A stretch of DNA of 64,000 nt from Bacteroidota bacterium. Lineage in GTDB: Bacteria > Bacteroidota > Bacteroidia > Bacteroidales > FEN-979. Below the pieces are notes generated by a model. That model saw nothing but the letters and a program-made list of their open reading frames with translations. It ran no database searches and had not been told where the DNA came from. Each line of letters starts with the position of its first letter. Position 1 is the first letter of the stretch. The position numbers were made by a program, and so were the translations under genes. The stretch is from NCBI GenBank assembly GCA_026391795.1, contig JAPLDI010000007.1:96940-160939 (forward strand), written 5' to 3'. Positions 7,024 to 34,980 of this stretch are shown here, piece by piece.

Positions 7024-7247
7024 TTTTTCAGGTTTTGAAGAAAAGCAACTCAAATTTCCTCAAAGAATACGCAATTCGCAAATAATATCGGTAAGCTCAT
7101 AGAAAAAATCGACGAACAATCACGGGTGGCAAACGGAGGTCCTGAACTTCCGTGGGTTTCAAGCGGGGATGTGATTACAAACAAACCCGGGAGGGTAATG
7201 AGTCTAGACCCCTGGGCTGCTCTTTCGCTAAGCGAAGCGGAAGCTCC

Positions 7248-8639
7248 TTAATGATAGGCAAAGAACAGGACCGGTGGAATTAAAAGCAGGCAGCCGAGGA
7301 TCAGAAATACGATGGATAAAGGGAACATAAACCTGAGCCATTTGTCATAGGAGATTTTCCCGATGGCGAGGACACCCATGGTTACTCCACTGGTCGGAAA
7401 AATATTGGTAAACAACCCGTCGCCCAGCTGGTATGCAAGAACTGCCGTTTGACGGGTAATACCAATGAGATCGCTTAATGGCGACATCAGGGGCATTGTC
7501 AGGGCAGCCTGCCCCGATCCCGACGGCACAAAGAAATTCATAAATCCCTGGAAAAAGAACATCATCTGGACTGAGATCGCCTTCGGAAAATGACCCATGG
7601 TTCCTGAAATTCCGTTCAGGATGGTATCAATAATTTTTCCATCGGTTGCGACAATAAGCATCCCGCGGGTCAGGCCAATCACAAATGCGGCTGTCATCAT
7701 GTCACGAGCACCGTCAAGGAAAGCCCCTATGATTGTATTTGAGGGCAGGCGGAAAAACAGCGCTGCAAGAATGCCCATAGCGAGGAACAATCCTGAAATC
7801 TCATTGATGTACCAGTTCCAGACGTTCACCCCGACGATGAGAAGGACCAGCGCTGCAAAAAAGATCATAAGCACAAGCTTTCTCTTCAGTGTAAAAACAA
7901 GATCTTCTGAGGAATGATAAGAAGAGAGGTCCCGTGAACGGTCTAACTCGTAAACCAGGCTCTTTTCCGGGTTCTTTTCAATTTTTCTTGCATACAGCAT
8001 GACAAAGATGATGGCGGCAGTCATCAGGACAATCCAAACCATGATCCTGTATTCCCATCCGCTGAAAATTGGAATCTCTGCAATGCCCTGAGCGATCCCG
8101 ATGGTAAACGGGTTGCTGAAAGCGCCCGCGAAACCTGTGGCTGCCCCGATAAAAGGGATTGCTACGCCGGTAAGGGAATCATACCCCATGGCCATGGCCA
8201 GTGGGATGGTGATCAGGATAAAAACCATCACCTCCTCACTCATGCCAAAGGAAGCCCCTGCCAGTGAAAAGAGGAACATGATGATGGGTATGACGAATAT
8301 TTTTACGCGGGGATTTTTCCGTGTAGCCTCCAGGATGCTCGATAATCCGGCATTGATCGCCCCGGTCTTGTTAAGGATCCCGAAAGCGCCACCGATTAGC
8401 AATACAAAAGCGATGATCTGTGATGCCGATATCATCCCCTTGATCGGAGCCGTAAGCAGGGCCATCAGCCCTTGCGGCTGTTGTTCTGTCTGGTGGTATG
8501 TCCCGGGAACAACAACCTGGCGTCCGTGATAGTCGTGGCGATCAAACTGCCCTGCCGGAATGATCCATGTCAGGATAAGAAAAAGTAAAAGAATGAGGGA
8601 GACAATGATCAACGTGTGCGGGATCTTTTTCTTTTCCAT
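7248..8639 (-). CDS. YfcC-family inner-membrane transporter (putative basic amino acid/dipeptide antiporter)
   Basis: PHT..I, LTWIIPAG.F, NPFTIGIAQGIAE.P.FSG and FFVPSGSGQA..TMP motifs, many TM helices. Confidence 0.88.
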   Translation of the reverse strand: MEKKKIPHTLIIVSLILLLFLILTWIIPAGQFDRHDYHGRQVVVPGTYHQTEQQPQGLMALLTAPIKGMISASQIIAFVLLIGGAFGILNKTGAINAGLSSILEATRKNPRVKIFVIPIIMFLFSLAGASFGMSEEVMVFILITIPLAMAMGYDSLTGVAIPFIGAATGFAGAFSNPFTIGIAQGIAEIPIFSGWEYRIMVWIVLMTAAIIFVMLYARKIEKNPEKSLVYELDRSRDLSSYHSSEDLVFTLKRKLVLMIFFAALVLLIVGVNVWNWYINEISGLFLAMGILAALFFRLPSNTIIGAFLDGARDMMTAAFVIGLTRGMLIVATDGKIIDTILNGISGTMGHFPKAISVQMMFFFQGFMNFFVPSGSGQAALTMPLMSPLSDLIGITRQTAVLAYQLGDGLFTNIFPTSGVTMGVLAIGKISYDKWLRFMFPLSIVFLILGCLLLIPPVLFFAYH

Positions 8640-8674
8640 TGAAAAACTTCTTAAGGGTGTGAAGCGAGAATCTG

Positions 8675-8682
8675 CAAATATA
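8675..8682 (-). promoter_or_regulatory. Bacteroidota sigma-A -7 box for the YfcC gene
   Basis: TATATTTG on the minus strand (TAnnTTTG consensus), 35 bp upstream of the ATG. Confidence 0.5.
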
Positions 8683-8888
8683 TTTTTATTTTTCTTTTTG
8701 TCACTTTTTTGCCGCTAAATTTTCAATAATCCTTTGTTTCGGCGCTGAAAACAAAAAAGAAACCTGGCTCAGCGGAATTCCCTGAATGGACAGGACCCCG
8801 GCATTACAAATTCTCAGCAAACAGTTATCTTTAAAGCTTTCGTAAAAAATTTTACCCAATACGTGATAACAAAAGCAGAATTTATTAA

Positions 8889-8896
8889 TATCTTTG
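8889..8896 (+). promoter_or_regulatory. Bacteroidota sigma-A -7 box for the T9SS cargo gene
   Basis: TATCTTTG matches TAnnTTTG, 34 bp upstream of ATG 8931. Confidence 0.5.
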
Positions 8897-8930
8897 AATT
8901 ATCAGAAGTCAAACCTAAAACTTAAACCCT

Positions 8931-10031
8931 ATGAAAAGAACTTTACTATTTCTTGCAGTAACCTTGCTTTGCATTACTGAAAGTTACTCCCAGGCTACTT
9001 TTAATACGGGGGCTCTGGAGGTCGGAGTAAGCCAGTATGGCAGGTTCCGGCTTTCCACAACAGACGGCACCTTGCATCTGCAACGTGCTTCAATCCTTGT
9101 CGGAACTTCATCGACAGAGGTATTTGACTACACAAATGATGCAAACGAACTTGACCCAACGGTATTGGTCACCAGCCCTACCTTGAGTGATTTTGAGATT
9201 TACGGTTCCGTTGACAACTCATATTCCTCCCTGCCACCGAATGTAGTTGTAAAGTACAATGCTTACGGGTGGACTTCCGGGAGTTATACCGTCGTCAAAT
9301 TCAATGTCACGAATAATGAATCGAGTGCCATAACGGCTTCCATAGGATTGGATATTATTCCTGAAATAAATGAGACGTATGGATTCGATACCGTTACGTA
9401 CAACAGTGGTGCAGGTGTTATCCGGTTTCACAGAGGTGCAGTGGAAAACATGGGGATGAAACTCCTTTCCGCATCCTTTTCTTCCCTCTATTCATTCGAA
9501 TGGTTTACAGATTATTCTATAGACTCCAATTACTGGAACTGGATGAATTTTGGATCCCTGCAGCCCGTTTATATTTCGCCCACTGCAGACGGACCTGTTA
9601 CAATTACTTCGCAGGCTCCGGTCGTTATAGCTCCGGGGGAATCCTTTAATGTGTATTATGCAATGGCACTTGGAGCTGATGAGCAGACAATGTTATCCAA
9701 CATCTCGGAAGCAGAATTAAAATATCAGTCGGTGATTGCCTCTGTTTCAAACCTTGTCCCTCCAGCTGCTGAATTCAGCCTCGGGCAGAATTATCCAAAT
9801 CCGTTCAAGAATTCAACTTCAATCCGCTATACGTTACCCGGTGATGGGTTTGTAAGCCTGAAGATCTATAATGTTATCGGGAATGAAGTGGCTACTCTTG
9901 TAAGTTCAAACCAAACACGAGGTTCACACATGGTTCAGTATGGTGTACAAGATCTGCCAACCGGGGTTTATTATTACACGCTCAGGTATAATGACGAGGT
10001 CAGGTCGAGTAAGATGTTCGTGAATAAATAA
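8931..10031 (+). CDS. Secreted protein with T9SS type A C-terminal sorting domain; N-terminal function unknown
   Basis: Signal peptide; CTD LGQNYPNPF...LKIYNVIG.EV...LPTGVYYY...KMFVNK. Confidence 0.85.
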   Translation: MKRTLLFLAVTLLCITESYSQATFNTGALEVGVSQYGRFRLSTTDGTLHLQRASILVGTSSTEVFDYTNDANELDPTVLVTSPTLSDFEIYGSVDNSYSSLPPNVVVKYNAYGWTSGSYTVVKFNVTNNESSAITASIGLDIIPEINETYGFDTVTYNSGAGVIRFHRGAVENMGMKLLSASFSSLYSFEWFTDYSIDSNYWNWMNFGSLQPVYISPTADGPVTITSQAPVVIAPGESFNVYYAMALGADEQTMLSNISEAELKYQSVIASVSNLVPPAAEFSLGQNYPNPFKNSTSIRYTLPGDGFVSLKIYNVIGNEVATLVSSNQTRGSHMVQYGVQDLPTGVYYYTLRYNDEVRSSKMFVNK

Positions 10032-10080
10032 TCACGTTGATCGTTTCAGGGTGGATTTACACACCTGATGTTTGACACAC

Positions 10081-10128
10081 AAAAACCGGGAAGAAGATGA
10101 ACGGACGTTTATCTTCTTCCCGGTTTTT
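10081..10128. terminator. Bidirectional intrinsic terminator
   Basis: AAAAACCGGGAAGAAGATGAACG-GA-CGTTTATCTTCTTCCCGGTTTTT long hairpin between convergent genes. Confidence 0.85.
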
Positions 10129-10137
10129 TAGCATTGT

Positions 10138-11340
10138 CTACAGTTTGATCTGGGCAATCGTCATGGCATGCGGACTAACCCCTGTCAGCCAGTCTTCCTG
10201 GTTGGATCCGTCCAGGTTGGCCCTGATAATCTTCCCGTCGGGACCAGAGTTTGAGATCTTAAATCCCCAGAAAAGCTTGTTATTCTGAAGGTCAATGGTT
10301 ACCCCCCAGGTGGCTTTTGTTCCGTAATCACCGATCTTGACCACGTTTGTACCGTCGATGTTGCACATATAGATGCCATTTTCAGTAGCTACTGTGCCTG
10401 CAGCTGCATAGAGGGCCATGTAAGTTTTCCCGTTCCTGAAATCCATCTCGATTGCGGTGCCGTCGATGCCCGGAATAATTTCTGTAAGTCCTGACCCATC
10501 CATGTTCACAGACCAGTATCCCCCGCTGTAATCCGTTTTATCATTGACCAGGTATATTTTGTTCGATGCCGGGTCGTATTGCATATCAATCGGATACTCG
10601 GGCGGACTTCCGTTTGTGTTAATAAAGACTTCGGGATTACTGCCATCGAGGTTGGCCCGGTAGATCCCTCCCGTCCGGCCCCAGTAAATCTTATCGGCGA
10701 GAACGAAAATGGCTTCGGCATCTCCTACGATCTCCTGACCGGGAACATTGGCATCAAGAATTTTCTGTGGATTCTTGCCGTCGGCATCGAACCGGTAGAT
10801 AGCCTTGACGGAATAGTCGCTTATATAGACTTTCCTGTGGGCTGTATCAACTGCAATTCCGTATGGTCTTTCCATGTCGGTAGCAACAAAATCCTGAATG
10901 AGTGGCGCAGCCGTATCGATAACGACCATGTGGCCATTTCCAAACGTTGCACCCCGGGTAGTAAAGTAAAATACATTGGTCAGGCCGGCAAGCGGATCTT
11001 TGACATTCACAACCATGGTTTTATTGATTGTGTTGTAATATACCTGATTTTGCGGTGTACAGGTCAGCTTGACACTGTACAGCCCGGGTTTCGAATAACT
11101 GGTCACAGGGTTGGCTTCCGTTGAGGTCTGGCCGTTTCCGAAATCCCAGGAATAACCTACAGCATTCAGCGACAGGTTAGTGAAGGTGACTTCACAGGGT
11201 GCGTATCCCTCGTTGTTGGCAACATAACTGAAATCGGCCACGGTACTTGCAGGAGGAGTCCCCATATCCTTTTTTTTGCATCCGGCTGCCAGTGACAGGA
11301 CGATCAGGATCAAGATGAGATATAACAGGTTTCTTTTCAT
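10138..11340 (-). CDS. Surface lipoprotein with PKD domain and YWTD/LDL-receptor-like beta-propeller (SusE/F position)
   Basis: Lipobox AAGC-KKKD, PKD motif YSWDFGNG...PG.Y.V.LT, repeated IYW/I.RANLDGS blades. Confidence 0.8.
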   Translation of the reverse strand: MKRNLLYLILILIVLSLAAGCKKKDMGTPPASTVADFSYVANNEGYAPCEVTFTNLSLNAVGYSWDFGNGQTSTEANPVTSYSKPGLYSVKLTCTPQNQVYYNTINKTMVVNVKDPLAGLTNVFYFTTRGATFGNGHMVVIDTAAPLIQDFVATDMERPYGIAVDTAHRKVYISDYSVKAIYRFDADGKNPQKILDANVPGQEIVGDAEAIFVLADKIYWGRTGGIYRANLDGSNPEVFINTNGSPPEYPIDMQYDPASNKIYLVNDKTDYSGGYWSVNMDGSGLTEIIPGIDGTAIEMDFRNGKTYMALYAAAGTVATENGIYMCNIDGTNVVKIGDYGTKATWGVTIDLQNNKLFWGFKISNSGPDGKIIRANLDGSNQEDWLTGVSPHAMTIAQIKL

Positions 11341-11370
11341 AGGTTTCTCTTTTATCAGATTGAAAAATGA

Positions 11371-12705
11371 TCAATAACCAGGATTCTGTGTCATCAGCGT
11401 ATTGGTTTGTAACTCGCTGAGCGGGATCGGGAAGAGCGTATGGTTCTGATCGATCCCCAGGAGGATGGTTGCTCTTTTTGTCCTGACAAGGTCAGACCAC
11501 CGTTGGCTTTCAAAAGCAAATTCGTGTCTGCGTTCATTCTCAATGACCAGCTTCAGTTCGGTGTAATCAGTGGATGTGGTGGGGGGCAGACCAGCCCTGG
11601 CCCTGAGGATGTTCACATCATTTCTGATATCCTCCAGGGCTCCGTTCGAATAGGCACGTGCCTCAGCGCGGATCAGGTACATTTCGGCCAGGCGAAGAAC
11701 ATAAATCCGGTCAGTTCCTGCAGTGACGTCTTTGTATTTGTAGCCAAACGGCAGGTTTGTTGAATCGAAAGTGATGGAAGTTTCAAACCGGACCGTATCT
11801 GTAAGATGGAAACTCTGTACGAAGTCGGAAGGCGGGGATACCTCATACCGCCCCAGAAGGCTCCTGGGATAGAAATACTGGGCCAGAAGTGTGCGGTTCT
11901 GTGCATCAGATACGATTTCAAAAACAGACTCGGTGGTATTCCCGTTGAACAGTCCGGGATAATCCGGTGAAAGCGAATAGCCTCCTTCATTGATCACCTT
12001 GCCGGCCTTTTCAATGGCGAGGGTGGCAATGGATGGATCGCCGGTTTGCTGGAATTGGGTAAGGTAAACCCTCGCCAGTAATGCCGTTGCACTGAAAGAG
12101 GTGGCCCACCCCAATGCCCTTGTCGACGGCAGCAGCTCTTCTGCTTTCAACAGGTCAGAAATGATCTGCTGATAGACCTGGGGTACCGTGTTACGGGCCT
12201 GGTTGATGGTGCTGAGGTCAAGCGTAGGCTGGGTCTTGATCGGAACCCCTCCGAAAAAACAGACAAGGTTGAAATGACATAATGCCCTCATAAAAAGACC
12301 ATCCCCGGTATACATGTTCTTGTCTGCCGTACTCATATCAATATCGGGAATCTTTGCGAGAACATTGTTGACGCGGTTGATACAATCGTAGTTGGCCGTC
12401 CAAATCCCGTCGATGATGCCATTATCGGCAGCAATATTATTATCGGCGATCTGTGAATAATCCTGCGTCGTCCCGGTCCAAACAAGATTGTCGGCAGCAA
12501 GATCCTCCACGATGACCTGGTAGCGTCCGTAGATACCCGTTGAGTGCAATGCACTGTAGGATCCTGTAATGGCGTTTTCCACACCTGCTTTGTCCTTGAT
12601 AGCCTCTTCCAGAGAGATGGAGTCTGTAGGCTGAACATCCAGCAACTTGTTACAGGAAACTGATGTAAGGCCGATCAGGATCAGTATAATTGATAATTTT
12701 TTCAT
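11371..12705 (-). CDS. susD: RagB/SusD family nutrient-binding lipoprotein
   Basis: Lipobox SVSC, RALCHFNLV..FGGVP, RLAEMYLIRAEA, ERRHEFAFE..RW.DL.R, QNPGY end. Confidence 0.95.
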   Translation of the reverse strand: MKKLSIILILIGLTSVSCNKLLDVQPTDSISLEEAIKDKAGVENAITGSYSALHSTGIYGRYQVIVEDLAADNLVWTGTTQDYSQIADNNIAADNGIIDGIWTANYDCINRVNNVLAKIPDIDMSTADKNMYTGDGLFMRALCHFNLVCFFGGVPIKTQPTLDLSTINQARNTVPQVYQQIISDLLKAEELLPSTRALGWATSFSATALLARVYLTQFQQTGDPSIATLAIEKAGKVINEGGYSLSPDYPGLFNGNTTESVFEIVSDAQNRTLLAQYFYPRSLLGRYEVSPPSDFVQSFHLTDTVRFETSITFDSTNLPFGYKYKDVTAGTDRIYVLRLAEMYLIRAEARAYSNGALEDIRNDVNILRARAGLPPTTSTDYTELKLVIENERRHEFAFESQRWSDLVRTKRATILLGIDQNHTLFPIPLSELQTNTLMTQNPGY

Positions 12706-12723
12706 CTTTTTCAGGATTAAAGG

Positions 12724-15633
12724 TTAAAAAACAAAGTTCAATCCAACCAGCAAGGTGCGCGATTGCGGGTAGGTGAAGAAGTCGGTTCCGATAATGATAT
12801 TGCTGGAACCTCCATAGTAATTTACTTCAGGGTCCATCCCGAAATAATTGGTGAAGGTGTAAAGGTTTTGAATGGAGGCATAGATTTTGGCAGACTTCAT
12901 GCCGATATGCTTGATCCATTTCTTCTGAAAATTATAGCTCAGCGTAACATTTTTCACCCTGAGAAAAGATCCGTCTTCGATGAACCTGGATGATTTATAA
13001 GAGTCGCCCGCTTTGGGGAACTGTGTAATGTCGCCCGGTTTTTTCCAGCGGTTAACCATCCGTGTTGTCTGGTTGTCTTCACCGGTTCCCGATTCAAGGT
13101 AGATAAGTGTTGCATCGAATACGTCGTTCCCATAAACACCCTGGAGAAAGATAGAAAGTTCAAAGGACTTGTAGCTGAACACATTGGTCACTCCCATGGT
13201 CCAGTCGGGGTTCGGATCACCGATCTTTGTCCGGTCCAGTGATGTGATAATCCCGTCGTGGTTGATGTCCTCGTATATCAGGCTCCCGGTTGTAGGGTCG
13301 ACACCCAGGCATTTGTAGCCGTAAAAGATGCCGATGGGTTGCCCCACCTCAACACGGTTTCCCCCCCGGCCCATGTCATCAATCGGCTGATCATTGTATA
13401 GGCTGAGCACTTTGTTGCGGTTAGCAGCAAAGTTCAATGAGGTAGTCCATTTAAATTCCTTATCGATGTTAACGGTATTAAGCATGACCTCCAACCCTTT
13501 GTTCTCCAGCTGGCCGATGTTGGACGAGATGGTGTAATAACCGGATGATGCGGGGATGGGTCTCTGAAGAAGAAGGTCTTTGGTATGGTTGTAGTAAACA
13601 TCAAACGTAAGGTTGATCCTGTTTTTGAGTACCGAAACATCAAGACCCAGACCGGTCTGGGTGGTTGATTCCCATTTCAGGTCGGGATTGGGCAACTGTA
13701 TGGGAGCAATCCCTGACTTACCGCCATAATTGTACCCGCCACTGTAGAGCCCCAGCGAGGCAAAATCCCCGATCCCGTCATTGCCGGTAAGGCCGTAACT
13801 GGCCCTGAGCTTTATTTCATTGATCCATTTTGCCTTCTTCATGAATGGTTCTTCCGTCATACGCCAGGCAAAAGAACCTGCCGGAAAATATCCATAATGA
13901 TTGTTGGCCCCGAATTTCGAGGAACCGTCGGCTCTTGCAGTGACGCTGCAGATATATTTGAACTTGTAATTGTACTTCAGTTGTCCAAAGTAAGAATTGA
14001 GAACCCGGTCGAGGGCGGTTGCAGAAGCTGCCCGGATGGTGCCTGCCGAAGTGATATACTGGAGGTTGTCGTTCGGAAAATTAATGCCTTCGATATAGGT
14101 TGTCCGGTTTGCATATTTCTCAAAGCTGTAACCGACAAGGAAGTCAATGTTGTGTTTCTCCTTGATCTGCTTGATATACTGGAGAACATTGTTTGTCGTG
14201 ACGTTACTGGCATAATTGGTTCCTTCGATGCCCAGGCCATTGTACTTGGCCCCCTGGCGGGTGGTTGTCGGATCGTAACTATGCTCTCTGAGATTGTAAA
14301 TGTCAACCCCGAATTTCGATGTAAACGTAAATCCATCCAGGAATTTATATTCAACATACGCATTGCCACCGGTGCGGTTCGTATAGGCCATGTTCACTGA
14401 GTTTTCATAAATGGCGACCGGGTTTGCATAGGGACCGTCTTCATTATAGGTTCCGTCAGGATTGTAAACCGGGTAAATGGCAGGTATTGACATGGCATTC
14501 GGCAGGGGACCGTAGAGGGTTGCATCCCCTTCCACCCTGGCGTTTTTCGCGTAGGTAATTCCCACACCTCCACCGACAGTCAGGTTGGGAAGGATTTTAT
14601 AATCTGCGTTAAGACGGCCGTTGTAACGTTTGTAGGAAGTTCCCTTTACAACACCATCCTGGTCATAATAACTTCCGGAGATGAACAGCCGGAATTTATC
14701 ATTTCCGCTGCTGACCGAAAGTTCTGTATTTGAGGTGGGGGCCACCTTCAGGATCTCCTTCATCCAGTCGGTATTGATCCCCTGGACATTGGTTCCTTTA
14801 TATTCATTCCATTGATCGGCGTTCATCATGGGGATGATCCGTTCTTTGGGAAGCGTTTGCCATCCGTAACTCGTGTTAAGCGAAACGTCTGTCTTTCCGC
14901 GGGCACCCTTTTTTGTCGTGATCAGGATAACCCCGTTGGAAGCACGGGCACCGTACATGGATGTTGCGGAGGCGTCTTTAAGGATGGTCATTGATTCGAT
15001 ATCGTTGGGGTTGAGGTCGGTCATGGCATTAAGTTCCTGACCGCTCATTCCGATTTGCGAATATTCCCCGGTAATCGCGGGTATTCCATCGACAACCATC
15101 AGGGGTTGATTGCTGGCATTAATGGAACTGCCCCCCCTGAGCTTGATCATATTCTGCCCCCCGGGCGTCCCCGACTGAGGTACAACGGTAAGCCCGGCGG
15201 TTTGTCCAAGCAAAACCCCATCAATGGTGCGGATGGGGATGTTCTTGATCTCATCCTCATTCACCAGTTCAATGGACCCGGATATCAGTTTTTTGCTGGA
15301 TGTGCTGTATCCGACAACCACTACCTCGCCGAGAGGAATGTCCTGGTCAGCCATTTTAACATTGATGACCGTGTGCCCGTTGACATCAATTTCCTGGGTC
15401 TGCATTCCGATGTACGAAAATACCAGAATCCCTTTTCCGGGGGCCAGGAGTGAATACTTACCGTTGATGTCGGAAGTGGTTCCTTTCGTGGTCCCTTTGA
15501 CAAGAATGGTAACACCCGGAAGTGGTGAATTATCATCAGAGGAATGAATCCTTCCACTCACAGGAATGTCCTGTGCAACCAGCTGCTGGAATAGTACCCA
15601 AAACAATAATAATAAACAGTAAGGTTTTTTCAT
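12724..15633 (-). CDS. susC: SusC/RagA family TonB-dependent transporter
   Basis: N-terminal CarboxypepD_reg-like domain, plug LNPNDIESMTILKDASATSMYGARASNGVILITTKKG, NPDLKWE, C-terminal YP..RT...GLNFVF. Confidence 0.97.
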   Translation of the reverse strand: MKKPYCLLLLFWVLFQQLVAQDIPVSGRIHSSDDNSPLPGVTILVKGTTKGTTSDINGKYSLLAPGKGILVFSYIGMQTQEIDVNGHTVINVKMADQDIPLGEVVVVGYSTSSKKLISGSIELVNEDEIKNIPIRTIDGVLLGQTAGLTVVPQSGTPGGQNMIKLRGGSSINASNQPLMVVDGIPAITGEYSQIGMSGQELNAMTDLNPNDIESMTILKDASATSMYGARASNGVILITTKKGARGKTDVSLNTSYGWQTLPKERIIPMMNADQWNEYKGTNVQGINTDWMKEILKVAPTSNTELSVSSGNDKFRLFISGSYYDQDGVVKGTSYKRYNGRLNADYKILPNLTVGGGVGITYAKNARVEGDATLYGPLPNAMSIPAIYPVYNPDGTYNEDGPYANPVAIYENSVNMAYTNRTGGNAYVEYKFLDGFTFTSKFGVDIYNLREHSYDPTTTRQGAKYNGLGIEGTNYASNVTTNNVLQYIKQIKEKHNIDFLVGYSFEKYANRTTYIEGINFPNDNLQYITSAGTIRAASATALDRVLNSYFGQLKYNYKFKYICSVTARADGSSKFGANNHYGYFPAGSFAWRMTEEPFMKKAKWINEIKLRASYGLTGNDGIGDFASLGLYSGGYNYGGKSGIAPIQLPNPDLKWESTTQTGLGLDVSVLKNRINLTFDVYYNHTKDLLLQRPIPASSGYYTISSNIGQLENKGLEVMLNTVNIDKEFKWTTSLNFAANRNKVLSLYNDQPIDDMGRGGNRVEVGQPIGIFYGYKCLGVDPTTGSLIYEDINHDGIITSLDRTKIGDPNPDWTMGVTNVFSYKSFELSIFLQGVYGNDVFDATLIYLESGTGEDNQTTRMVNRWKKPGDITQFPKAGDSYKSSRFIEDGSFLRVKNVTLSYNFQKKWIKHIGMKSAKIYASIQNLYTFTNYFGMDPEVNYYGGSSNIIIGTDFFTYPQSRTLLVGLNFVF

Positions 15634-15647
15634 GGGTTAAAAATTGG

Positions 15648-16925
15648 TTAGTATTTATTGTTTAATGGAGTCAGGCTGATAGTTACAGGAGTGATATCCA
15701 TCAGGATCCGGGTAACTGTAAAATGATCCTGCTGAGGAGGACTGACGGAATAAAATCCTTCAGACAAAGGGGTTTTGCGCAAGGTGAGCAGGAACCCTGA
15801 AGTATTGCTGACAAAGGAGACATTCTGAACGGTATCTGTTTCTTTGTTATCAATCAGGTGAGCAGTGATGAGATCACGCAAGGAGACCTGGTTCCCGGAT
15901 AAGATCCCTGCCTGATCGGGAGGGTGACCATGATGATGCTCTTTGCCTTTCAGGGATTGCCTTCCGGTAGCCGGTAGTATGTTCCCGGTTGCAGGATCAT
16001 AGGAATCGCCTTCTTCAAGATAGGATAATGAAAGGTTCTCGATAAAGGGTATGTCCTGGACATAAGAGATACGGGCTCCGGAAGCATTGAGAATGGTGAC
16101 CCCGGAAGCGCCGGCAACGCTGATCATGTTTTTCTGGCTGTTGTATATCAGGGCAGTGTTTTCATCAACACCAAAACCCAGGCTGAACTCTTTTTTTGCA
16201 TCCATCAGGGCCAATGCCAGCCTACCGAGACGGGGCCTGGCATTAAAATGCTGATCGACCAGCCCGCAAGGGAAAAATCCAAGCCCGCTCATGACCAGCA
16301 CCCCCGTATCTTCCGGAAAATCATTCCCCTGGTAGCCCCTGATAATACCATGGCACAAAGCTGCAATACCGGTCCCGCCCCCGATCATGACCTCGCTCAT
16401 GATCGCGGCACCTGCACTGCTCCCGCCAATCACCCCACCCGAACGATATACATCCCACACTGCCCTGAGAACAGGTGTCTGACTTCCATCGGGGCGGTAG
16501 AGTGTTTTCAGGGTCCGCATCTGGTCACCACCGGTAAACCAGACTGCCGAACATTTGCTTATGATTCTGGCTAACCGCGTATCATTCCCGTTATCCTTCC
16601 ACTCCGATTCATTTACATCCTTGGTACTGTCATCATCGATCATGGCCACATTCACGAGGTGAATGTTTTCAGGATTTAGCCCGTAAGAAATCAGGATGTT
16701 CCTGAAACTTGCGTATGACTGCATGGGGACGCCACTGGCTGAGGGAATCACGGCAAATGTGGCTTTTTCCTTTCCTCCCGCAAAAGCGATCAACTGCTCG
16801 TAGATACTTTTGTTGTCAGCTTCCAGCCCCCCCCCAACGATTACAAGGTTCCCTTTCGGGGCTGACTGTCCCATGGATTCGATGACAAGAAAAAAGAGGG
16901 ATAGTACAAGTAAAGGTCTTACCAT
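15648..16925 (-). CDS. cphE: Exported cyanophycinase (peptidase S51, CphE-like)
   Basis: LVIVGGG, FTGGDQ, nucleophile GSSAG, DQHF..R.RLGR, GVDENT (Ser-His-Glu triad and substrate arginines); N-terminal signal peptide. Confidence 0.88.
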   Translation of the reverse strand: MVRPLLVLSLFFLVIESMGQSAPKGNLVIVGGGLEADNKSIYEQLIAFAGGKEKATFAVIPSASGVPMQSYASFRNILISYGLNPENIHLVNVAMIDDDSTKDVNESEWKDNGNDTRLARIISKCSAVWFTGGDQMRTLKTLYRPDGSQTPVLRAVWDVYRSGGVIGGSSAGAAIMSEVMIGGGTGIAALCHGIIRGYQGNDFPEDTGVLVMSGLGFFPCGLVDQHFNARPRLGRLALALMDAKKEFSLGFGVDENTALIYNSQKNMISVAGASGVTILNASGARISYVQDIPFIENLSLSYLEEGDSYDPATGNILPATGRQSLKGKEHHHGHPPDQAGILSGNQVSLRDLITAHLIDNKETDTVQNVSFVSNTSGFLLTLRKTPLSEGFYSVSPPQQDHFTVTRILMDITPVTISLTPLNNKY

Positions 16926-17049
16926 ACTCTTTCGTTAAATGATTTAATTGTCTGGCAGGAATAATTAATTGCTAATATATTAAATTTGTTAAAAACTGAA
17001 TAAATTAAAAATTAATTTTTCTCAACTTTGCCTGTTAAAATCCAAGATT

Positions 17050-18177
17050 ATGCTGACACTCCTGAAAAATGCACAGGTCTATGGTCCGGATCACTTCGGA
17101 AAGAAAGATATCCTGACTGGCGGACATATCATCCTTGCCATAAATGATCACCTGGAACCTCCCGCGGGAGCGGATGTGAACGTCATTGACTGTAAAGGAC
17201 TCCGGATTGTTCCCGGGTTCATCGACAGCCATGTGCATATTACAGGAGGGGGCGGTGAAGGCGGGCCGGCAAGCAGGATGCCTGAACTCCAGCTAAACAT
17301 GATGTTTGAGGGCGGTGTCACTACCGTGATTGGATGCCTTGGTACGGATGGCATCACCCGAACAGTGGAAAGCGTGCTGATGAAAGTCAAATCCCTGCGG
17401 GCACTGGGTGTTTCCGCCTGGATGTATACCGGGGCATACCAGGTTCCCACCCCTACAATTACAGGCGATATCGGAAAAGACATTGCCCTGTTCGAAGAGA
17501 TCATCGGGGTTGGCGAGATTGCCATCTCCGACCACCGTTCTTCGGTCCCTTCGGTTGCAGAACTGGCCCGCATCACAGCCCAGGCCCGCGTGGCAGGCAT
17601 GATTGGCGGAAAGGCCGGCATTGTTAATGTACACATGGGAGATGCCAAGGACCCATTTCGTCCCCTCCATGAAGTGGTCGCCAGCACCGAGATGGGATAC
17701 CGGCAGTTCGTGCCGACCCATTGCAACCGTAACCCATACATATTTGAAGATTCCAGGGAATACGGGAAAAAGGGCTATGTGGATATCACCACAAGCTCTT
17801 ATCCTTACGATAAGGATGTAGAGATAAAACCATCAGTGGCGCTAAAACAGCTGCTTGAAGCAGGTGTCCCTGACGATCATATCACATTCACATCCGATGG
17901 CTGTGGTTCGCTTCCCAGTTTCGATGCGGAAGGAAGGCTGATCAAGATTGATATGGGTTTGCCGTCATCCATTCTGAGGGAGATCAAGGAATCTGTGATG
18001 GAGGATAAAATCCCCCTGGAAACCGCTTTAAAAGTTGCCACTTCCAACCCTGCCGATATCCTTAAGTTAAAACGGAAAGGTCATATCCGGGAAGGTGGCG
18101 ATGCAGACTTGCTACTGGTTGATGATGGGTTCAATATTATTTACCTGATGGCGATGGGCAATATTGTGCAAGGGTGA
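17050..18177 (+). CDS. iadA: Isoaspartyl dipeptidase (beta-aspartyl peptidase, amidohydrolase M38)
   Basis: DSHVHITGGGGEGG, GCLGTDG, YTGAYQVP, ISDHRSS, HMGD, PTHCNR, TSDGCGSLP motifs. Confidence 0.95.
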   Translation: MLTLLKNAQVYGPDHFGKKDILTGGHIILAINDHLEPPAGADVNVIDCKGLRIVPGFIDSHVHITGGGGEGGPASRMPELQLNMMFEGGVTTVIGCLGTDGITRTVESVLMKVKSLRALGVSAWMYTGAYQVPTPTITGDIGKDIALFEEIIGVGEIAISDHRSSVPSVAELARITAQARVAGMIGGKAGIVNVHMGDAKDPFRPLHEVVASTEMGYRQFVPTHCNRNPYIFEDSREYGKKGYVDITTSSYPYDKDVEIKPSVALKQLLEAGVPDDHITFTSDGCGSLPSFDAEGRLIKIDMGLPSSILREIKESVMEDKIPLETALKVATSNPADILKLKRKGHIREGGDADLLLVDDGFNIIYLMAMGNIVQG

Positions 18178-18222
18178 TAAAGTGAAAATATTTTTATTTA
18201 ATTTAAACTTGCCTGCTTCATT

Positions 18223-19851
18223 ATGAGAAGATTCGTTTTATGCACCCTGGTTTTTCTATTGACTGCCAGTATCCTTCGGTCACAAACGGAAACCCATTCT
18301 GTGCCGCCGCCTTCGGTGAATGATTTTACAGGGATCCAGTCATTTCTCTCATCCGACTGGATGGAAGGGCGCGAAGCCGATACCCGCGGTGGGTTCATGG
18401 CAGCTGATTTCATTGCCTCCCTGATGCAGCTCAACGGACTGCTGCCATACGGTGATACCGGTAATATCAAAGAGCACCGAACAAACCAACCCTTCAACCG
18501 TTCCTATTTCCAGGATTTTGAACTGATCCGTTACCGGGTTGAGAAATCTTCTCTTGCCCTTATCAAGGCGTCGCCGGAAGGAGAATCGGTTCTTCAATTC
18601 GTTCCCGGCGTCGATTTTGAGACCAGCCCGGTTCCCTTCAGCTTAAAGGAAGAGGCATCACTGGTATTTGCCGGTTACGGTATTGAAGCCCCGGGGAAAG
18701 GTTATGATGATTACCGTGGCATTGATGTCAGGGACCGTATCGTCCTTATTGCAGCAGGATTCCCCGGCCATTCTGATACAACTTCCGCTGCCTGGAAAAA
18801 ACTGGGCAAGTCCTTCGGCAGAGAATTCTCAAAATTATCCGTTAAACTCCGGGTAGCTGAAAAACACGGAGCTAAAGCAGTGATCCTCATTGGTCCGGAA
18901 GGAGGGACAGAACCCTTCCTCCCTGCAATCCATAACCGGGATCTTATAAACAGTGCAATGAACTCAGCCAAACCAGAGCCTGATTACGAGGATGCCGAAT
19001 ATTACCTGCCCGGAGATACAGGCATGGTGTACATTCCCTGTTTCAGCCTGAGTACCGGTGTTGCCCGTCTCCTGCTGATGGGGACGGCGATTGACCTGCC
19101 CGGCTTTGAAAGAAAGGCAGCCGGTGACTTGCTGTCATCGTCGATGGCTGTCAGCGGGAAAAAACTCAGGTTATCGGTCGAGGTTGCACGGGACGCGGTG
19201 GGGGTCCGGAATGTCCTCGGAATAATTCCCGGCCACGATACCGGGAAGAACATTCTTATCGGGTCGCATTTTGATCACCTGGGGGTCAGAAAAGGAGTGA
19301 TCTACAACGGGGCCGATGACAATGCATCAGGGGTTTCCGGAATGCTGGCATTGGCAAAAAACTGGGCGGGCCATCCTGAAAAACCGTCGTGCAACATTAT
19401 TTTTGCAGCCTGGACCGCCGAAGAAAAAGGGCTTTTAGGCAGCGACTGGTTTGTACGGCATTCGGGGATCCTTTCCGGCAGTTTGTCGGTTGTCATTAAT
19501 ATGGATATGATTTCAAGAAGCGCCCCTGAAGATACGCTTGGCCGACAACTCAGCATTGGAACGCTGCCCATGAATGAGGACCTGAAGACCTTGGCTAAAA
19601 AAATCAATTCACACCTGAAACATCCCTTTGTCCTTGATCTCTGGGATGTGACAGGACACACGGGAAGCGATTACGCTCATTTTGCAGAAAGGAAGATTCC
19701 GGTAATGACTTTTTTCTCGGGATTTCATGATGACTACCATACCCCCCGCGATATCTGGTCAAAAACAGATCCCGTGAAGATGGAGGAGATCCTGAAGATC
19801 GTCAATGAATGCATCCTGGAAACGTCAGAGAACCCTCCGGCCAGAAAATGA
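18223..19851 (+). CDS. Exported M28 family aminopeptidase with PA domain
   Basis: SHFDH, NGADDNASG, AEEKGLLGS, NMDMI, SDY..F, YHTP.D; PA insert VFAGYGI...DDY; signal peptide. Confidence 0.92.
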   Translation: MRRFVLCTLVFLLTASILRSQTETHSVPPPSVNDFTGIQSFLSSDWMEGREADTRGGFMAADFIASLMQLNGLLPYGDTGNIKEHRTNQPFNRSYFQDFELIRYRVEKSSLALIKASPEGESVLQFVPGVDFETSPVPFSLKEEASLVFAGYGIEAPGKGYDDYRGIDVRDRIVLIAAGFPGHSDTTSAAWKKLGKSFGREFSKLSVKLRVAEKHGAKAVILIGPEGGTEPFLPAIHNRDLINSAMNSAKPEPDYEDAEYYLPGDTGMVYIPCFSLSTGVARLLLMGTAIDLPGFERKAAGDLLSSSMAVSGKKLRLSVEVARDAVGVRNVLGIIPGHDTGKNILIGSHFDHLGVRKGVIYNGADDNASGVSGMLALAKNWAGHPEKPSCNIIFAAWTAEEKGLLGSDWFVRHSGILSGSLSVVINMDMISRSAPEDTLGRQLSIGTLPMNEDLKTLAKKINSHLKHPFVLDLWDVTGHTGSDYAHFAERKIPVMTFFSGFHDDYHTPRDIWSKTDPVKMEEILKIVNECILETSENPPARK

Positions 19852-19853
19852 TA

Positions 19854-20966
19854 TCAATCTGCTTTTTGGGCAACACTTCTCACCGTTACGTCATCCAGTG
19901 CCCTCATGTTGACCTCCACACCGATTCCGGGTTTGTCAGGAACGTCCATGGTACCGTCGGGGTTAACCACAAATTCAGGTATCACGATATCTTCCTTATA
20001 ATATCTTTTGCTTGCCGAAATATCACCCGGCAGGGTGAAATTTGAAAGAGAAGCCAGTGCCACATTGCCTGCCCTGCCAATTCCGGATTCAAGCATACCC
20101 CCACACCACACCGGAATGTTCATGCCGGCGCAATAATCATGAATCAGCCTGGATTCGGTGAACCCTCCTACCCGTCCGGGTTTAATGTTGATCACCCTGC
20201 AACTGTCCAGTTCGATAGCGGCCCGGGTGTCGTCAAGTGAGTGGATGCTTTCGTCGAGGCAGATGGGTGTTTTAAGCTCACGCTGGAGTTTAGAATGATC
20301 AAAGATGTCTTCATATCCGAGGGGCTGTTCAATCAGCAGCAGCCCGTAATCATCCATTTTTTTAAAAATACTGATATCCTCCAGCCTGTATGCTGAATTG
20401 GCATCCACCTGAAGCAACATTCCGGGAAACTGCTTTCGCAGCGCCTCAACGAATTGCAGGTCATTACCCGGGGCGATCTTGATCTTGATCCGTTTGTAGC
20501 CTTCTGCAAGATAACCCTCAACCTTTGTAATGAGTCCGCCTACCGAATCCTGAATGCCGATGCTTACACCGACATCAATCTTTTTACGGGTCCCTCCCAG
20601 CATCCGGGATAAGGAAATGCCTTTTGTTTTCGCGAAGGCATCCCATAAAGCGGCTTCAAGACCTGCTTTTGCCATCATGTGTCCCCGGACCTTGGCATAC
20701 ATGGCAATGGCTTCATCAACACTCTGAAGATCTTTGCCCAGCAAGGAGGGAATTAAAAAATCTGTAAGGATGTGCCAGGCGGTCGGGACCGTCTCGTAGG
20801 AATAAAAGGGAGTCCCTTCAGCCACACTTTCACCCCATCCGGTTACCCCTTCTGCATTAACCTTTACAATGATATGCTCTTCATCATATTCGGTACCCAT
20901 CGACGTTACGAACGGGCTTACCAGAACCAGCTTGACATGCCGCAGTTCAATTCGTTCAATACGCAT
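19854..20966 (-). CDS. menC: o-succinylbenzoate synthase / N-succinylamino acid racemase (enolase superfamily, NSAR/OSBS subfamily)
   Basis: KIKI, DAN, EQP, DES, NIK and GGMLE..GDISAS motifs of the NSAR/OSBS subfamily. Confidence 0.8.
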   Translation of the reverse strand: MRIERIELRHVKLVLVSPFVTSMGTEYDEEHIIVKVNAEGVTGWGESVAEGTPFYSYETVPTAWHILTDFLIPSLLGKDLQSVDEAIAMYAKVRGHMMAKAGLEAALWDAFAKTKGISLSRMLGGTRKKIDVGVSIGIQDSVGGLITKVEGYLAEGYKRIKIKIAPGNDLQFVEALRKQFPGMLLQVDANSAYRLEDISIFKKMDDYGLLLIEQPLGYEDIFDHSKLQRELKTPICLDESIHSLDDTRAAIELDSCRVINIKPGRVGGFTESRLIHDYCAGMNIPVWCGGMLESGIGRAGNVALASLSNFTLPGDISASKRYYKEDIVIPEFVVNPDGTMDVPDKPGIGVEVNMRALDDVTVRSVAQKAD

Positions 20967-21006
20967 ACTGTTTTTTTTAATGGTTTATACCATGGATTAT
21001 TGATTC

Positions 21007-22527
21007 TTATTTCTCAACACGTAAAACAGGAAATGGACTTCCCTTCTTTAAAAGACCGGCATACCTGTGATAGGTCTCCAGTCCAAGCATCGACTTCGGC
21101 TCCAGGGCAAGCACCACAAGGATGCCTTTCAGCTGGGCTGTCGGGATAAAAATAAATCCGTGATCCGGGGGAAGTTCCTTCAGGATGTCTGATGCAAGCT
21201 GAGGATCTGCAACCCGATCCCCTTCAAAATCCGCGGAGTCGACTGAGGTTATTCTGTATTGCACAAAATGCTCACCCGGATATTTTTTCAGGGGGATCTG
21301 TTCAAGCGAAAGTCTCTCTGCCCACTCCACCAGATCTTTATTATCTTTTGGGATCAGGTATCCTGATGGCTTCCTTACATCATAAATTGATTTCACCACA
21401 GGGCGGTAATCTTTTACAGTGACCAGGGTGTCGTTGTGTGAATAATAGGAATAGAGCGGGATCGTCAGGAATTGCCCGTTGGCAATGTGTTGTGATTGAA
21501 CCGATATCTTCTGCCCGGGATCAGCGGATAGCAGCTTTTTTCGTTCCCCGGAGATGAGGGTCCTGATCTTTCCCTTATTCGAATAAGTGTACTCGAGCAG
21601 CCCCCGCATGCCGGCCATCTGTCCTTCGGCCCTGTGCTGAAGGTTATCAATGGAATCATCCTTGCCGTTCATGCCTTCCTGGATAAAGGAAAAAGTGCCC
21701 TGAATCCCGAAACTCTGTCGTCCGTCATTGATATCGAAGGTACTGTGCCTGATATAATCGATTTCGGGCGGACCACCCGGACTATAGGTGAATGATGAAA
21801 AATTCCTGGCATGAAGATAGCTGAAAATAAAGGGAAGATAATCGTCATCTGATAATTTCCGGATGCTTTCTGCAACGTTCAGATTGGTCGTCGTGCCTAT
21901 GTTAAGATCTGTGTTTTTCCGGTATCCGTATTTTTTCCACTCCTCACCGAATGGTGAATATTCATGAACATCCATGGTCACTTCGAAGAGGTACCTGTCA
22001 AAAAGCTGGTGCAGTGCGATTGTTTCAGGTTCGGTAAGGATCAGGTGGTTTCGGTTAAGATCCATCCCATTCGCGTTACGCCTCTGGTTGACCTCTGACC
22101 CATCCGGATTTACCTGGGGGATCAACGCCAGGTCGATTTTATTAAAAAGATAGCGGTTTACCGGTCTCAGCAGTTCCAGCGCAAGCAGCAACGCCCCCTC
22201 CTTTCCCGATTGTTCATTCCCATGCTGCTGGGCAAAGATGAGGACTTTAATTTTCGTGGTATCCTTACCAAATCCTGACAAGGAAAATTTCATTGCATAA
22301 AGGTTCCTTCCCTGCACTGAATGCCCGATGATTTCTGTTTTCATCAATCCCGACTTCCTGCCAAGAAGCTCAACATAGGAAGAGAGTTCAGGATATGAGG
22401 TCAGCTTACTGTACTTGTTGATGACCAAAGGAGGTGAAGGGGTCTGGGCAATAACCACGACGGAAACCAGATGAAAAATTGTCAGCAGTATGGCTGCCTG
22501 TTTCATGGAACGGAAGATTGAGTTCAT
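21007..22527 (-). CDS. Exported M14 family zinc carboxypeptidase
   Basis: HGNE (HxxE), NPDG...RRNANG.DLNRN, DVHE; signal peptide. Confidence 0.9.
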   Translation of the reverse strand: MNSIFRSMKQAAILLTIFHLVSVVVIAQTPSPPLVINKYSKLTSYPELSSYVELLGRKSGLMKTEIIGHSVQGRNLYAMKFSLSGFGKDTTKIKVLIFAQQHGNEQSGKEGALLLALELLRPVNRYLFNKIDLALIPQVNPDGSEVNQRRNANGMDLNRNHLILTEPETIALHQLFDRYLFEVTMDVHEYSPFGEEWKKYGYRKNTDLNIGTTTNLNVAESIRKLSDDDYLPFIFSYLHARNFSSFTYSPGGPPEIDYIRHSTFDINDGRQSFGIQGTFSFIQEGMNGKDDSIDNLQHRAEGQMAGMRGLLEYTYSNKGKIRTLISGERKKLLSADPGQKISVQSQHIANGQFLTIPLYSYYSHNDTLVTVKDYRPVVKSIYDVRKPSGYLIPKDNKDLVEWAERLSLEQIPLKKYPGEHFVQYRITSVDSADFEGDRVADPQLASDILKELPPDHGFIFIPTAQLKGILVVLALEPKSMLGLETYHRYAGLLKKGSPFPVLRVEK

Positions 22528-22796
22528 GGTAAAGCGAAAATAGGAAAAAATATCACAGGTCTCACTTCACCTTCACAAATTCTGGTTGAAAACGATCTGA
22601 AGGAATCTCTGCAGATCAGACCGGGTAATCACGTGTACGAATTCTGGGAGTTGAAGAAAAGCATTATTCTTAACTACCTATTGTATCCATTATAGATTCT
22701 GTTTAACTTTGCTCACCTGTGATGCAGGAGGATATAATGACATTTACATCCGCTTTCTAAATCCAAATTCATAAAAATCAATTCAAAATCAATTCT

Positions 22797-23339: not shown

Positions 23340-23723
23340 ATGAAAAGGACACTTGCCTTCATGATCATTCTTTCCATCGCATTTGCGGCCTTCACCGGGT
23401 GCAAAAAAAAGAGCTCTGAGATCACCTGCAATCTCGCCACTGCCGTCAACACGCCACCGGTTGATATGCAGGTAGTATATTCAGCAGCCCAGTCGGGGGA
23501 TGGTGTCATGGTATCGTTAACCTATCAGACCATCACAGGACCCGTCACTGTTGCAAATCCCAAACTGCCATGGAGTGACACTGTCTCAGTGCTTACCAGC
23601 ACCAATGTGAAGATGACAGCATCCGGTACGGTCAAGAATGGCAGCCTGATCATAGCCTATAAAGGCAGCAGCGGAGGTTCGCAGATCCTGGGCAGCGATT
23701 ACTGCGAGCAATCGTCGGATTAG
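23340..23723 (+). CDS. Hypothetical lipoprotein
   Basis: Lipobox FTGC-KKK, small beta-rich domain. Confidence 0.7.
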   Translation: MKRTLAFMIILSIAFAAFTGCKKKSSEITCNLATAVNTPPVDMQVVYSAAQSGDGVMVSLTYQTITGPVTVANPKLPWSDTVSVLTSTNVKMTASGTVKNGSLIIAYKGSSGGSQILGSDYCEQSSD

Positions 23724-34932: not shown

Positions 34933-34980
34933 TTTCTCACAAACCTAACAACAGAAAAGAATCTTTTTCAATCAAATCAT

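Follow-up and report, generated by a model that had tools for sequence, protein, structure and literature searches.

A cluster of ten genes at positions 7248-22527 was analyzed in a 64,000-nucleotide stretch of DNA, referred to here as the window, from a Bacteroidota bacterium (FEN-979, Bacteroidales; GCA_026391795.1, contig JAPLDI010000007.1, positions 96,940-160,939 of the forward strand). Its products include a putative cyanophycinase, an outer-membrane import pair of the SusC/SusD type and an isoaspartyl dipeptidase, and the cluster is consistent with the scavenging of cyanophycin by an organism that does not make the polymer. Four genes follow one another on the reverse strand: the S51 cyanophycinase CphE in a long form of 425 residues (15648-16925, TIGR02069), a SusC/RagA-family TonB-dependent transporter (TBDT) of 969 residues (12724-15633, TIGR04056 and TIGR04057), a SusD-family lipoprotein of 444 residues (11371-12705, SusD-like_3 and SusD_RagB) and a 400-residue PKD-domain lipoprotein (10138-11340, PKD_4 and a lipobox). 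The gaps calculated from the coordinates are 14 bp between cphE and susC, 18 bp between susC and susD and 30 bp between susD and the lipoprotein gene. Divergent from cphE, across an AT-rich intergenic region of 124 bp (16926-17049), the forward strand carries iadA, encoding a beta-aspartyl (isoaspartyl) dipeptidase of 375 residues (17050-18177, TIGR01975), and 45 bp further on the gene of a 542-residue M28 aminopeptidase (18223-19851, Peptidase_M28). Two reverse-strand genes, 40 bp apart and both convergent with the M28 gene, encode an enolase-superfamily enzyme of 370 residues from the N-succinylamino acid racemase/o-succinylbenzoate synthase (NSAR/OSBS) subfamily (19854-20966, TIGR01928) and an M14 metallocarboxypeptidase of 506 residues (21007-22527, Peptidase_M14). 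At the other end of the cluster the gene of a 366-residue cargo protein of the type IX secretion system (T9SS; 8931-10031, forward strand, Por_Secre_tail) is convergent with the lipoprotein gene and divergent from yfcC, whose product is an inner-membrane transporter of the YfcC/DcuC family with 463 residues (7248-8639, reverse strand, Pfam DcuC). The open reading frame (ORF) listing confirmed the ten genes, coordinates, directions and short gaps given in an earlier note on this DNA, and the family labels used there were borne out by Pfam and NCBIfam profiles, with the reservation for YfcC given below.

The intergenic region at 16926-17049 is presumed to contain a shared promoter region of cphE and iadA, and no regulator-binding site was identified in it. 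Pattern scans over positions 7000-23000 gave sigma-70 promoters and terminators at the level of shuffled sequence (25 found against 22.6 expected, and 17 against 16.9, respectively), so operon boundaries were not drawn from them. The enzymes of the locus are all peptidases or amidohydrolases, plus the one enolase-superfamily enzyme, and no glycoside hydrolase, lyase or esterase was found among the ten genes using Pfam. The claim that the whole window lacks glycoside hydrolases also held, as none of these families matched any of the 39 ORFs scanned. The scanned set consisted of candidate genes among the complete ORFs of at least 220 residues, plus ORFs of 127-212 residues at 5484-6086, 6415-7053, 22797-23252, 23340-23723 and 23762-24208; overlapping shadow ORFs and the ORFs of at least 220 residues at 1543-2241, 2287-3507 and 26896-27744/27793-28638 were left out. 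Signal peptides and lipoboxes were judged by eye from the translations, which gave type-I signal peptides for SusC, CphE, the M28 and M14 proteins and the T9SS cargo, and no export signal for IadA and the NSAR/OSBS protein.

CphE matched the cyanophycinase model TIGR02069 with 166.4 bits against a cut-off of 126.6, its sole NCBIfam family match. When the whole genome was searched with this model CphE scored 167.6 bits and was the only cyanophycinase over the cut-off. The protein comprises a type-I signal peptide, a catalytic domain at about residues 27-312 and a C-terminal extension of ~110 residues. It aligned to the solved cyanophycinases 7UQV (E 2.7e-20) and 3EN0, from which it differs by two insertions and the C-terminal extension, and the alignment retained the motifs GSSAGA and DQHF, an R-x-R-x-x-R stretch and VDENT, which we take to supply the catalytic Ser, His and Glu and the substrate-binding Arg residues. 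No Por_Secre_tail or other Pfam match was obtained in the extension at E up to 5. CphE is predicted to be periplasmic because it has a plain signal peptide and neither a T9SS sorting domain nor another C-terminal Pfam match. A cyanophycinase in the periplasm would be sensible only if chains longer than a dipeptide cross the outer membrane, and this is the strongest internal argument that the SusC/SusD pair carries pieces of cyanophycin.

A quick tree with supports from the Shimodaira-Hasegawa approximate likelihood ratio test (SH-aLRT) placed the window-type S51 protein in a long-branched clade of its own (support 100) with five homologues from metagenome-assembled genomes (MAGs), which joined the short forms of scavenger loci weakly (80). 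The S51 proteins of genomes carrying the cyanophycin synthetase gene cphA formed one clade (99) and the T9SS-tailed S51 proteins another (99). The genome contains a second S51 gene, unlinked to the locus (L010:997-2313, contig C22), which encodes a protein of 438 residues with a T9SS type-A sorting domain, the only T9SS-tailed S51 protein of the genome. It scored 49 bits, under the TIGR02069 cut-off, and in the same tree it grouped with long T9SS-tailed cyanophycinase-like proteins such as that of the SusCD-type locus L042.

The transporter SusC matched TIGR04056 with 858 bits (cut-off 368.25) and the SusC signature TIGR04057 with 65.4 bits. Its Pfam domains were Plug and CarbopepD_reg_2, an N-terminal CarboxypepD_reg domain, and no STN signalling domain was detected in the family profile scan. 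The closest solved relative of SusC was 8AA4_A (E 1.1e-146), and RagA (6SLI_B) aligned with an E of 2.7e-94. The SusD protein scored 100.5 bits with SusD-like_3 and 94.4 bits with SusD_RagB, has a lipobox ending in Cys18 and had as its best solved relative 9SJE_B, a 'SusD homolog' (E 3.4e-39). The SusC/RagA-family transporter gene is followed directly, after the 18-bp gap, by that of the SusD-family lipoprotein, as in a SusC/SusD pair. The PKD lipoprotein has the lipobox LAAGC at residues 17-21, a PKD_4 domain (39.8 bits) and weak matches of the DUF5050, SGL and arylesterase type, and it probably holds a beta-propeller. Its gene ends the cphE-susC-susD run, a position like that of a surface glycan-binding protein, and the product is proposed to be a surface binding protein.

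The T9SS cargo consists of a signal peptide, an all-beta N-terminal domain (about residues 21-250), a helix and a type-A C-terminal sorting domain, with Por_Secre_tail at residues 288-363. Its AlphaFold model had a predicted local distance difference test (pLDDT) value of 87.7, and Foldseek matched the model to GH94/GH15/GH116-type enzymes and aldose-1-epimerase-like proteins with an E of about 3e-8 and template modelling (TM) scores, normalized to the query, of 0.37-0.49. The protein may serve as a surface-exposed module that binds its ligand without catalytic activity. A protein atlas search with the N-terminal domain returned only 'hypothetical protein' clusters with scores of 0.81-0.85, below the meaningful level. 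Homologues of 650-668 residues (L017:6125-8077, L019:13129-15081 and L026:12832-14838) were found by alignment to contain the N-terminal beta domain twice in tandem, followed by the sorting domain.

YfcC matched Pfam DcuC with 380.7 bits and the model NF008611, 'putative basic amino acid antiporter YfcC', with 397 bits, under the cut-off of 500. It is a candidate importer of beta-Asp-Arg or of released Arg and Asp. IadA scored 441 bits with TIGR01975, above the cut-off of 331.25, and is taken to be cytoplasmic because it has no signal peptide. The M28 protein has a signal peptide, matched Peptidase_M28 with 131.6 bits and gave a weak PA-domain match; it is regarded as accessory because a full-length orthologue was present only in L015 among five closely related loci.

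The M14 protein matched Peptidase_M14 with 72.2 bits; it starts with a signal peptide or anchor and ends in a domain rich in beta structure. Its model (pLDDT 81.2) consists of a funnelin-type carboxypeptidase with this domain added, and the zinc and catalytic residues H102, E105, R149, N158, R159, H188 and E284 were invariant in 13/13 homologues. Sequence and fold searches matched it to carboxypeptidases A4/B/T/D/N/U and to bacterial metallocarboxypeptidases. An assignment as CphZ, the M14 AstE/AspA-like cyanophycin dipeptide hydrolases found in cyanophycin gene clusters (Sharon et al. 2023, PMC9974463), was rejected, since there was no AstE_AspA Pfam match and no CphZ among the 17 sequence matches or the ~49 top fold matches listed. 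The M14 homologue of L021 scored 20 bits with AstE_AspA_cat, under the cut-off of 25. CphZ and the window M14 are both M14-clan enzymes of cyanophycin clusters, but the latter is funnelin-type, has a signal peptide and is extended by a large domain at the C-terminus.

The NSAR/OSBS protein scored 370.5 bits with TIGR01928, above the cut-off of 200.65, and aligned to the Amycolatopsis N-acylamino acid racemase 1SJA with an E of 1.2e-102. The alignment retained RIKIKI, QVDAN, IEQP, LDES and NIKPGRVGG, corresponding to the KxK, D/E/D and KPGR/second-Lys motifs, which presumably hold the catalytic and metal-ligand residues. The gene is the only MR_MLE_C (enolase-superfamily) gene in the genome. 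A role as MenC was judged unlikely because no menB over the cut-off (best 127 bits against 342.7) and no match to menD were found in the 95.6%-complete genome. Beta-Asp-Arg is a close analogue of N-succinyl-Arg and would therefore be a plausible NSAR substrate.

The source genome, from an organism represented in metagenomes only, comprises 3.76 Mb in 50 contigs and is estimated to be 95.6% complete. The absence of a cyanophycin synthetase from the window, claimed previously, extended to the whole genome, where the best match to the synthetase model TIGR02068 was 67.8 bits against a cut-off of 850. A scan for close relatives of CphE, with one genome per species, identified six loci at 54-71% CphE identity in MAGs labelled Bacteroidales, Bacteroidota, Lentimicrobiaceae and Saprospirales. 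One of these, L013, is an uninformative 4.2-kb contig, and the counts cover the other five. The order cphE-susC-susD-lipoprotein was kept in 5/5 of these loci, which had enough flank, while iadA (divergent from cphE), M14, NSAR/OSBS and the T9SS cargo were each present in four, as was yfcC when a 106-residue fragment at the end of L011 is counted. The recurrence of this gene order in all five loci at such CphE identities makes the arrangement more than chance. In the Saprospirales-labelled MAG the orthologous susC (L016:11275-14184) is broken up into three ORFs, with 195, 197 and 688 residues, which may reflect frameshifts, assembly error or a decaying gene, and iadA and the enolase gene were not found within 21 kb in this locus.

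The wider distribution was surveyed in a sample of 401 Bacteroidota genomes. A cyanophycinase over the cut-off was present in 89 of them, and cphA in 57 at E up to 1e-100, with 50 over the cut-off. Both genes occurred together in 51 of the 89 cyanophycinase-bearing genomes, leaving 38 without cphA, the source genome included. For all 37 other cphA-less genomes, plus five second loci, a stretch of at most 20 kb surrounding the top S51 match was collected and its ORFs were searched by phmmer (E up to 1e-5) with the ten window proteins and seven proteins of L021. A TBDT was located beside the cyanophycinase in 28/37 genomes, as SusC with SusD in 8 and as a TBDT of ~820 residues in 20, and YfcC homologues adjoined the S51 gene in 18/37, as well as in three of the five closely related loci. 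None of the window-type neighbours was present in nine loci taken from cphA-bearing genomes; these were hand-picked among the 51 and not random, so this is a contrast rather than a statistic. The survey genomes include kin and so are not independent, and because the stretches were centred on the short cyanophycinase the counts for far-end genes (M14 in 9 genomes, NSAR in 5) are lower bounds.

Among the SusCD-type loci L025 is clearly orthologous to the window in IadA, M28 (in a 337-residue form), M14, NSAR, SusC (1516 bits), SusD and the lipoprotein after SusD. Its iadA gene is divergent, and genes for a short and a T9SS-tailed S51 protein stand where the window has the 425-residue form. Seven further genomes have the order SusC-SusD-short cyanophycinase, some with YfcC. 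A second locus type, found in 20/37 cphA-less genomes, is commoner than the SusCD type and has the order PepT-like M20, short cyanophycinase, YfcC, T9SS cargo homologue, RpiR regulator, a ~820-residue non-SusC TBDT, a ~920-residue protein, a PorV-like protein, a ~690-residue T9SS-tailed S51 protein, M14 and NSAR/OSBS (L021:2582-19264; also L017-L023, L026, L027, L044-L047, L052, L054, L056-L060 and L067). No Pfam family matched the ~920-residue protein at E up to 5. Both transporter contexts contain homologues of M14, NSAR/OSBS, the T9SS cargo and YfcC, and in each of them the M14 and NSAR/OSBS genes travel together.

The PepT-like M20 gene of the second type (L021:2582-3676 and homologues; TIGR01883 246.5 bits, cut-off 274.25) occupies the place of IadA beside the short cyanophycinase. 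The isoaspartyl dipeptidase of Bacteroidota has been described as still "undiscovered" (Sharon & Schmeing 2023, PMC10206079). The M20 protein is a candidate for this enzyme, and the M14 gene may be considered as another.

Matches to the locus were also obtained in public sequencing runs. At least half of the sampled words of locus DNA were present in 10 runs from 3 studies of metagenomes labelled freshwater or lake water, one of which may be the source study. Small word shares in the RNA runs X12-X15 were rejected as evidence of habitat. Two lake metatranscriptome runs from a single study contained RNA contigs identical to positions 16993-17581 and 17959-18293, covering iadA and the start of the M28 gene. 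One peat metatranscriptome run of another study gave contigs that match parts of susC and susD without a difference, as well as a contig of the cargo gene with one differing letter. Between the divergent yfcC and cargo genes, in an intergenic region of 291 bp (8640-8930), short pieces of many RNA-library contigs matched at about 8678-8711, with 3 differing letters each and loose ends; this is probably a low-complexity T-rich stretch common to other organisms rather than a transcript end.

Considered together, the sequence data suggest that the locus serves to scavenge cyanophycin through a SusC/SusD importer in a host unable to make the polymer, a reading to which we give a probability of about 0.7. 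The scavenging role is well supported by context. Scavenging is preferred over turnover of the cell's own polymer because no cphA was found in a 95.6%-complete genome and because the export signals fit the compartments that the route would require; the conservation of the cluster, and the TBDT adjoining the cyanophycinase in 28/37 cphA-less genomes, lend it further support. In the proposed mechanism, SusD, the PKD/propeller lipoprotein and the beta-sandwich protein anchored through the T9SS would retain cyanophycin from lysed producers on the outside of the cell. SusC, with energy from TonB, would then let soluble chains or fragments across the outer membrane, and the 425-residue cyanophycinase would cut them in the periplasm to beta-Asp-Arg. 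YfcC may move the dipeptide or its amino acids over the inner membrane, where cytoplasmic IadA would free Asp and Arg. The periplasmic M14 protein, the M28 aminopeptidase and the cytoplasmic NSAR/OSBS-family enzyme are likely to be part of the same unit.

Several observations weigh against this interpretation. In its native state cyanophycin is of large size and low solubility, and no secreted or extracellular depolymerase for such an insoluble polymer is evident among the locus genes. The sole cyanophycinase encoded there has a plain signal peptide. Its family is described as exo-acting and as specialised for cyanophycin (Sharon & Schmeing 2023, PMC10206079). The scavenging route had been called complete in the earlier note; the context fits its SusCD import, periplasmic CphE, YfcC and cytoplasmic IadA, but the word complete has to be dropped. 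As a guess, the unlinked T9SS-tailed S51 protein could supply an extracellular activity. CphE itself scores 166 bits where cphA-linked enzymes reach about 200-270 bits with TIGR02069, and its branch in the quick tree is 1.79 changes per column; the long branch and lower score make a shifted substrate possible. The ten locus genes include no regulator of the hybrid two-component, extracytoplasmic function (ECF)/anti-sigma or SusR-like kinds. The nearest one is a TetR-family gene at 5484-6086, beside LolA-like/FtsX genes, while the TBDT-type relatives have an RpiR-family gene within the locus. In the survey 9/37 cphA-less genomes showed no transporter near the cyanophycinase, two of these loci being a short contig or a contig end. 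No cyanophycinase was found in any of seven genomes of the same order, indicating that the trait is patchy. Support from RNA is thin, as the libraries may hold DNA and cphE, yfcC and M14 are without cover. Full-text literature searches found no enzyme or binding assay on any SusCD-linked cyanophycinase.

The locus might alternatively take up small beta-aspartyl or D-amino-acid peptides in general, such as murein peptides or those of damaged proteins, with cyanophycin fragments as one substrate of many. The M28 and M14 proteins belong to general exopeptidase families, and the pairing of an M14 gene with an enolase-superfamily racemase/epimerase resembles the murein-peptide pair MpaA/YcjG of E. 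coli. The MpaA model matched the M14 protein weakly, at 28.5 bits (cut-off 157). The enolase protein likewise gave a weak match to L-Ala-D/L-Glu epimerase (95 bits, cut-off 500), but it fits NSAR/OSBS, at 370 bits, far better than it does the dipeptide epimerases. IadA enzymes from cyanophycin clusters are described as promiscuous for beta-aspartyl dipeptides (PMC10206079), and RagAB, whose RagA is a solved relative of SusC, is an example of peptide import by a pair of the SusCD type. Against this reading, the only neighbour that stays constant across all architectures is an S51 protein of the cyanophycinase equivalog, from the family described as specialised for cyanophycin. Such loci, moreover, were seen in genomes without cphA, and the cyanophycinase of the nine cphA-bearing loci examined had no such surroundings. 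A general peptide system is on this basis considered unlikely.

A change of polymer is somewhat less probable still. Here the long S51 protein would have diverged to another poly-amino acid or branched peptide, and the SusC/SusD pair would target that polymer, as could be expected from the separate long-branched clade, the two insertions, the ~110-residue extension that matched no family and the restriction of the window type to 6 loci of the genome collection in the close-relative scan. CphE passes the curated cyanophycinase cut-off, however, and keeps the aligned catalytic motifs as well as the Arg-rich stretch after DQHF. The orthologous IadA, SusC, SusD, lipoprotein, M14 and NSAR of L025 moreover accompany ordinary short and T9SS-tailed cyanophycinase-family genes in the same position. 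That the locus turns over the cell's own cyanophycin, with SusC and SusD adjacent by accident, is close to refuted and highly improbable. The presence of cphA in 51/89 cyanophycinase-bearing genomes makes internal turnover a plausible function of the enzyme there, but the absence of cphA from this genome, the signal peptide of CphE and the SusCD adjacency kept in 5/5 related loci and 8 further genomes all argue against it here.

Scavenging of cyanophycin remains the preferred reading of the locus, and it leaves several of the conserved genes to be accounted for. The M14, NSAR/OSBS and T9SS cargo genes are the most consistently co-travelling genes, and they do so in both transporter contexts. 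The earlier note had listed them, together with the M28 gene, but assigned them no role. As a speculation to which we give a fairly low probability, they may represent catabolic steps beyond the textbook two-enzyme scheme of cyanophycinase followed by isoaspartyl dipeptidase, with a secreted M14, a cytoplasmic NSAR/OSBS enzyme and a T9SS-anchored beta-supersandwich protein forming a conserved module in two unrelated transporter contexts. Our best guess for the M14 enzyme is that it would strip Arg from the side chains, each of which exposes the alpha-carboxylate of its Arg. The NSAR-like enzyme would on a similar best guess act on beta-Asp-Arg because this resembles N-succinyl-Arg, in the boldest version as an activity new to the family, and the PepT-like M20 of the TBDT-type loci might be the isoaspartyl dipeptidase of Bacteroidota. 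This conserved, unexplained module of M14, NSAR-like and T9SS protein is the more interesting result.

Loci of a related kind have been described. A 'cyanophycin utilization locus' of a Bacteroidetes isolate is credited to Ben Hania et al. 2017; as the citing passage paraphrases it, this is a genome-predicted set that combines one or more cyanophycinase genes with iadA and a transporter and serves to scavenge environmental cyanophycin (Sharon & Schmeing 2023, PMC10206079). The window likewise contains a cyanophycinase, iadA and a transporter in one cluster, in a host without the synthetase. The abstract of the original study of Salinivirga cyanobacteriivorans L21-Spi-D4 (Environ Microbiol 19:1134) reportedly treats the transport complex as homologous to polysaccharide utilization loci (PULs). 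S. cyanobacteriivorans is said to have two cyanophycinases, and in one of them a Por domain for secretion by the T9SS is present (Sorokin et al. 2018, PMC6243061). In contrast, the window locus has a single cyanophycinase of 425 residues, whose signal peptide is of the plain type and which lacks a sorting domain, and no pair of cyanophycinases with one of the Por/T9SS kind was found in it. In Citromicrobium sp. JLT1363 a TBDT is located beside a cyanophycinase, and cyanophycin was proposed as its substrate (Tang et al. 2012, PMC3400609). That transporter is an alphaproteobacterial classical TBDT without a SusD partner, and the passage concerned describes a single adjacency and no conserved multi-gene unit.

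The likeness to PULs of the Sus type lies in the susC-susD tandem followed by a surface lipoprotein, in the degradative enzymes encoded in the same direction and in the tight spacing. The locus differs from them by having no glycoside hydrolase, lyase, esterase, hybrid two-component or ECF/anti-sigma regulator, and with neither carbohydrate-active enzymes nor a dedicated regulator it is not a PUL in the strict sense. The RagAB complex of Porphyromonas gingivalis (PDB 6SLI) is a SusC/SusD-family pair that imports peptide and not glycan. RagAB imports ordinary alpha-peptides made by gingipains, whereas the presumed cargo of the window pair is a branched non-ribosomal polypeptide, and the closest solved relative of its SusC is the glycan-system homologue 8AA4 and not RagA. 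In full-text literature searches no SusCD or TBDT system for cyanophycin turned up that had been examined experimentally; studies on Dyadobacter, Lake Sevan, Baltic MAGs, F. psychrophilum, Halieaceae, a soda-lake consortium and a Swiss stream mention cyanophycin and SusC/D or PULs only separately. The suggestion of novelty in the earlier note was accordingly overstated, given the locus published in 2017, although its remark that its author knew of no characterised SusCD system for cyanophycin agreed with the literature searched. The concept has been in print since 2017, and the window locus adds not the concept but a variant with a distinctive single long periplasmic cyanophycinase.

Other features of the window lie outside the locus. 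A tricorn-type protease of 1096 residues, with PD40 repeats, Tricorn PDZ and C1 domains and peptidase S41, is encoded 5 kb from the locus (27265-30555, reverse strand). Consecutive genes for an ABC ATPase, an ABC-2 permease, ABC_transp_aux/DUF7088 and DUF4340 at 33973-38278 (forward strand) form a row which we take to be the pattern of the gliding-motility GldA/F/G set. An NrfD-family membrane protein of 747 residues adjoins a 4Fe-4S dicluster protein at 45188-48387 (reverse strand), with a Crp-family regulator at 48688-49389. At 60092-63908 (reverse strand) a PorP/SprF gene (253.5 bits) lies directly downstream of the gene of a 942-residue protein with a CHU_C type-B T9SS sorting domain, indicating that the organism has parts of the T9SS.

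Blooms and mats of cyanobacteria contain much of their fixed nitrogen as a large pool of cyanophycin, and knowledge of its uptake after cell lysis comes mainly from a small number of secreted CphE enzymes. The survey yields candidate genes for the missing steps, namely M14, NSAR-like, M20 and the T9SS binding protein, and marker sets for bloom metatranscriptomes. If the present reading is correct, SusCD-type and other TonB-dependent importers would give many Bacteroidota private access to this nitrogen-rich polymer, and the 'selfish uptake' logic of PULs would be extended to a non-ribosomal polypeptide.

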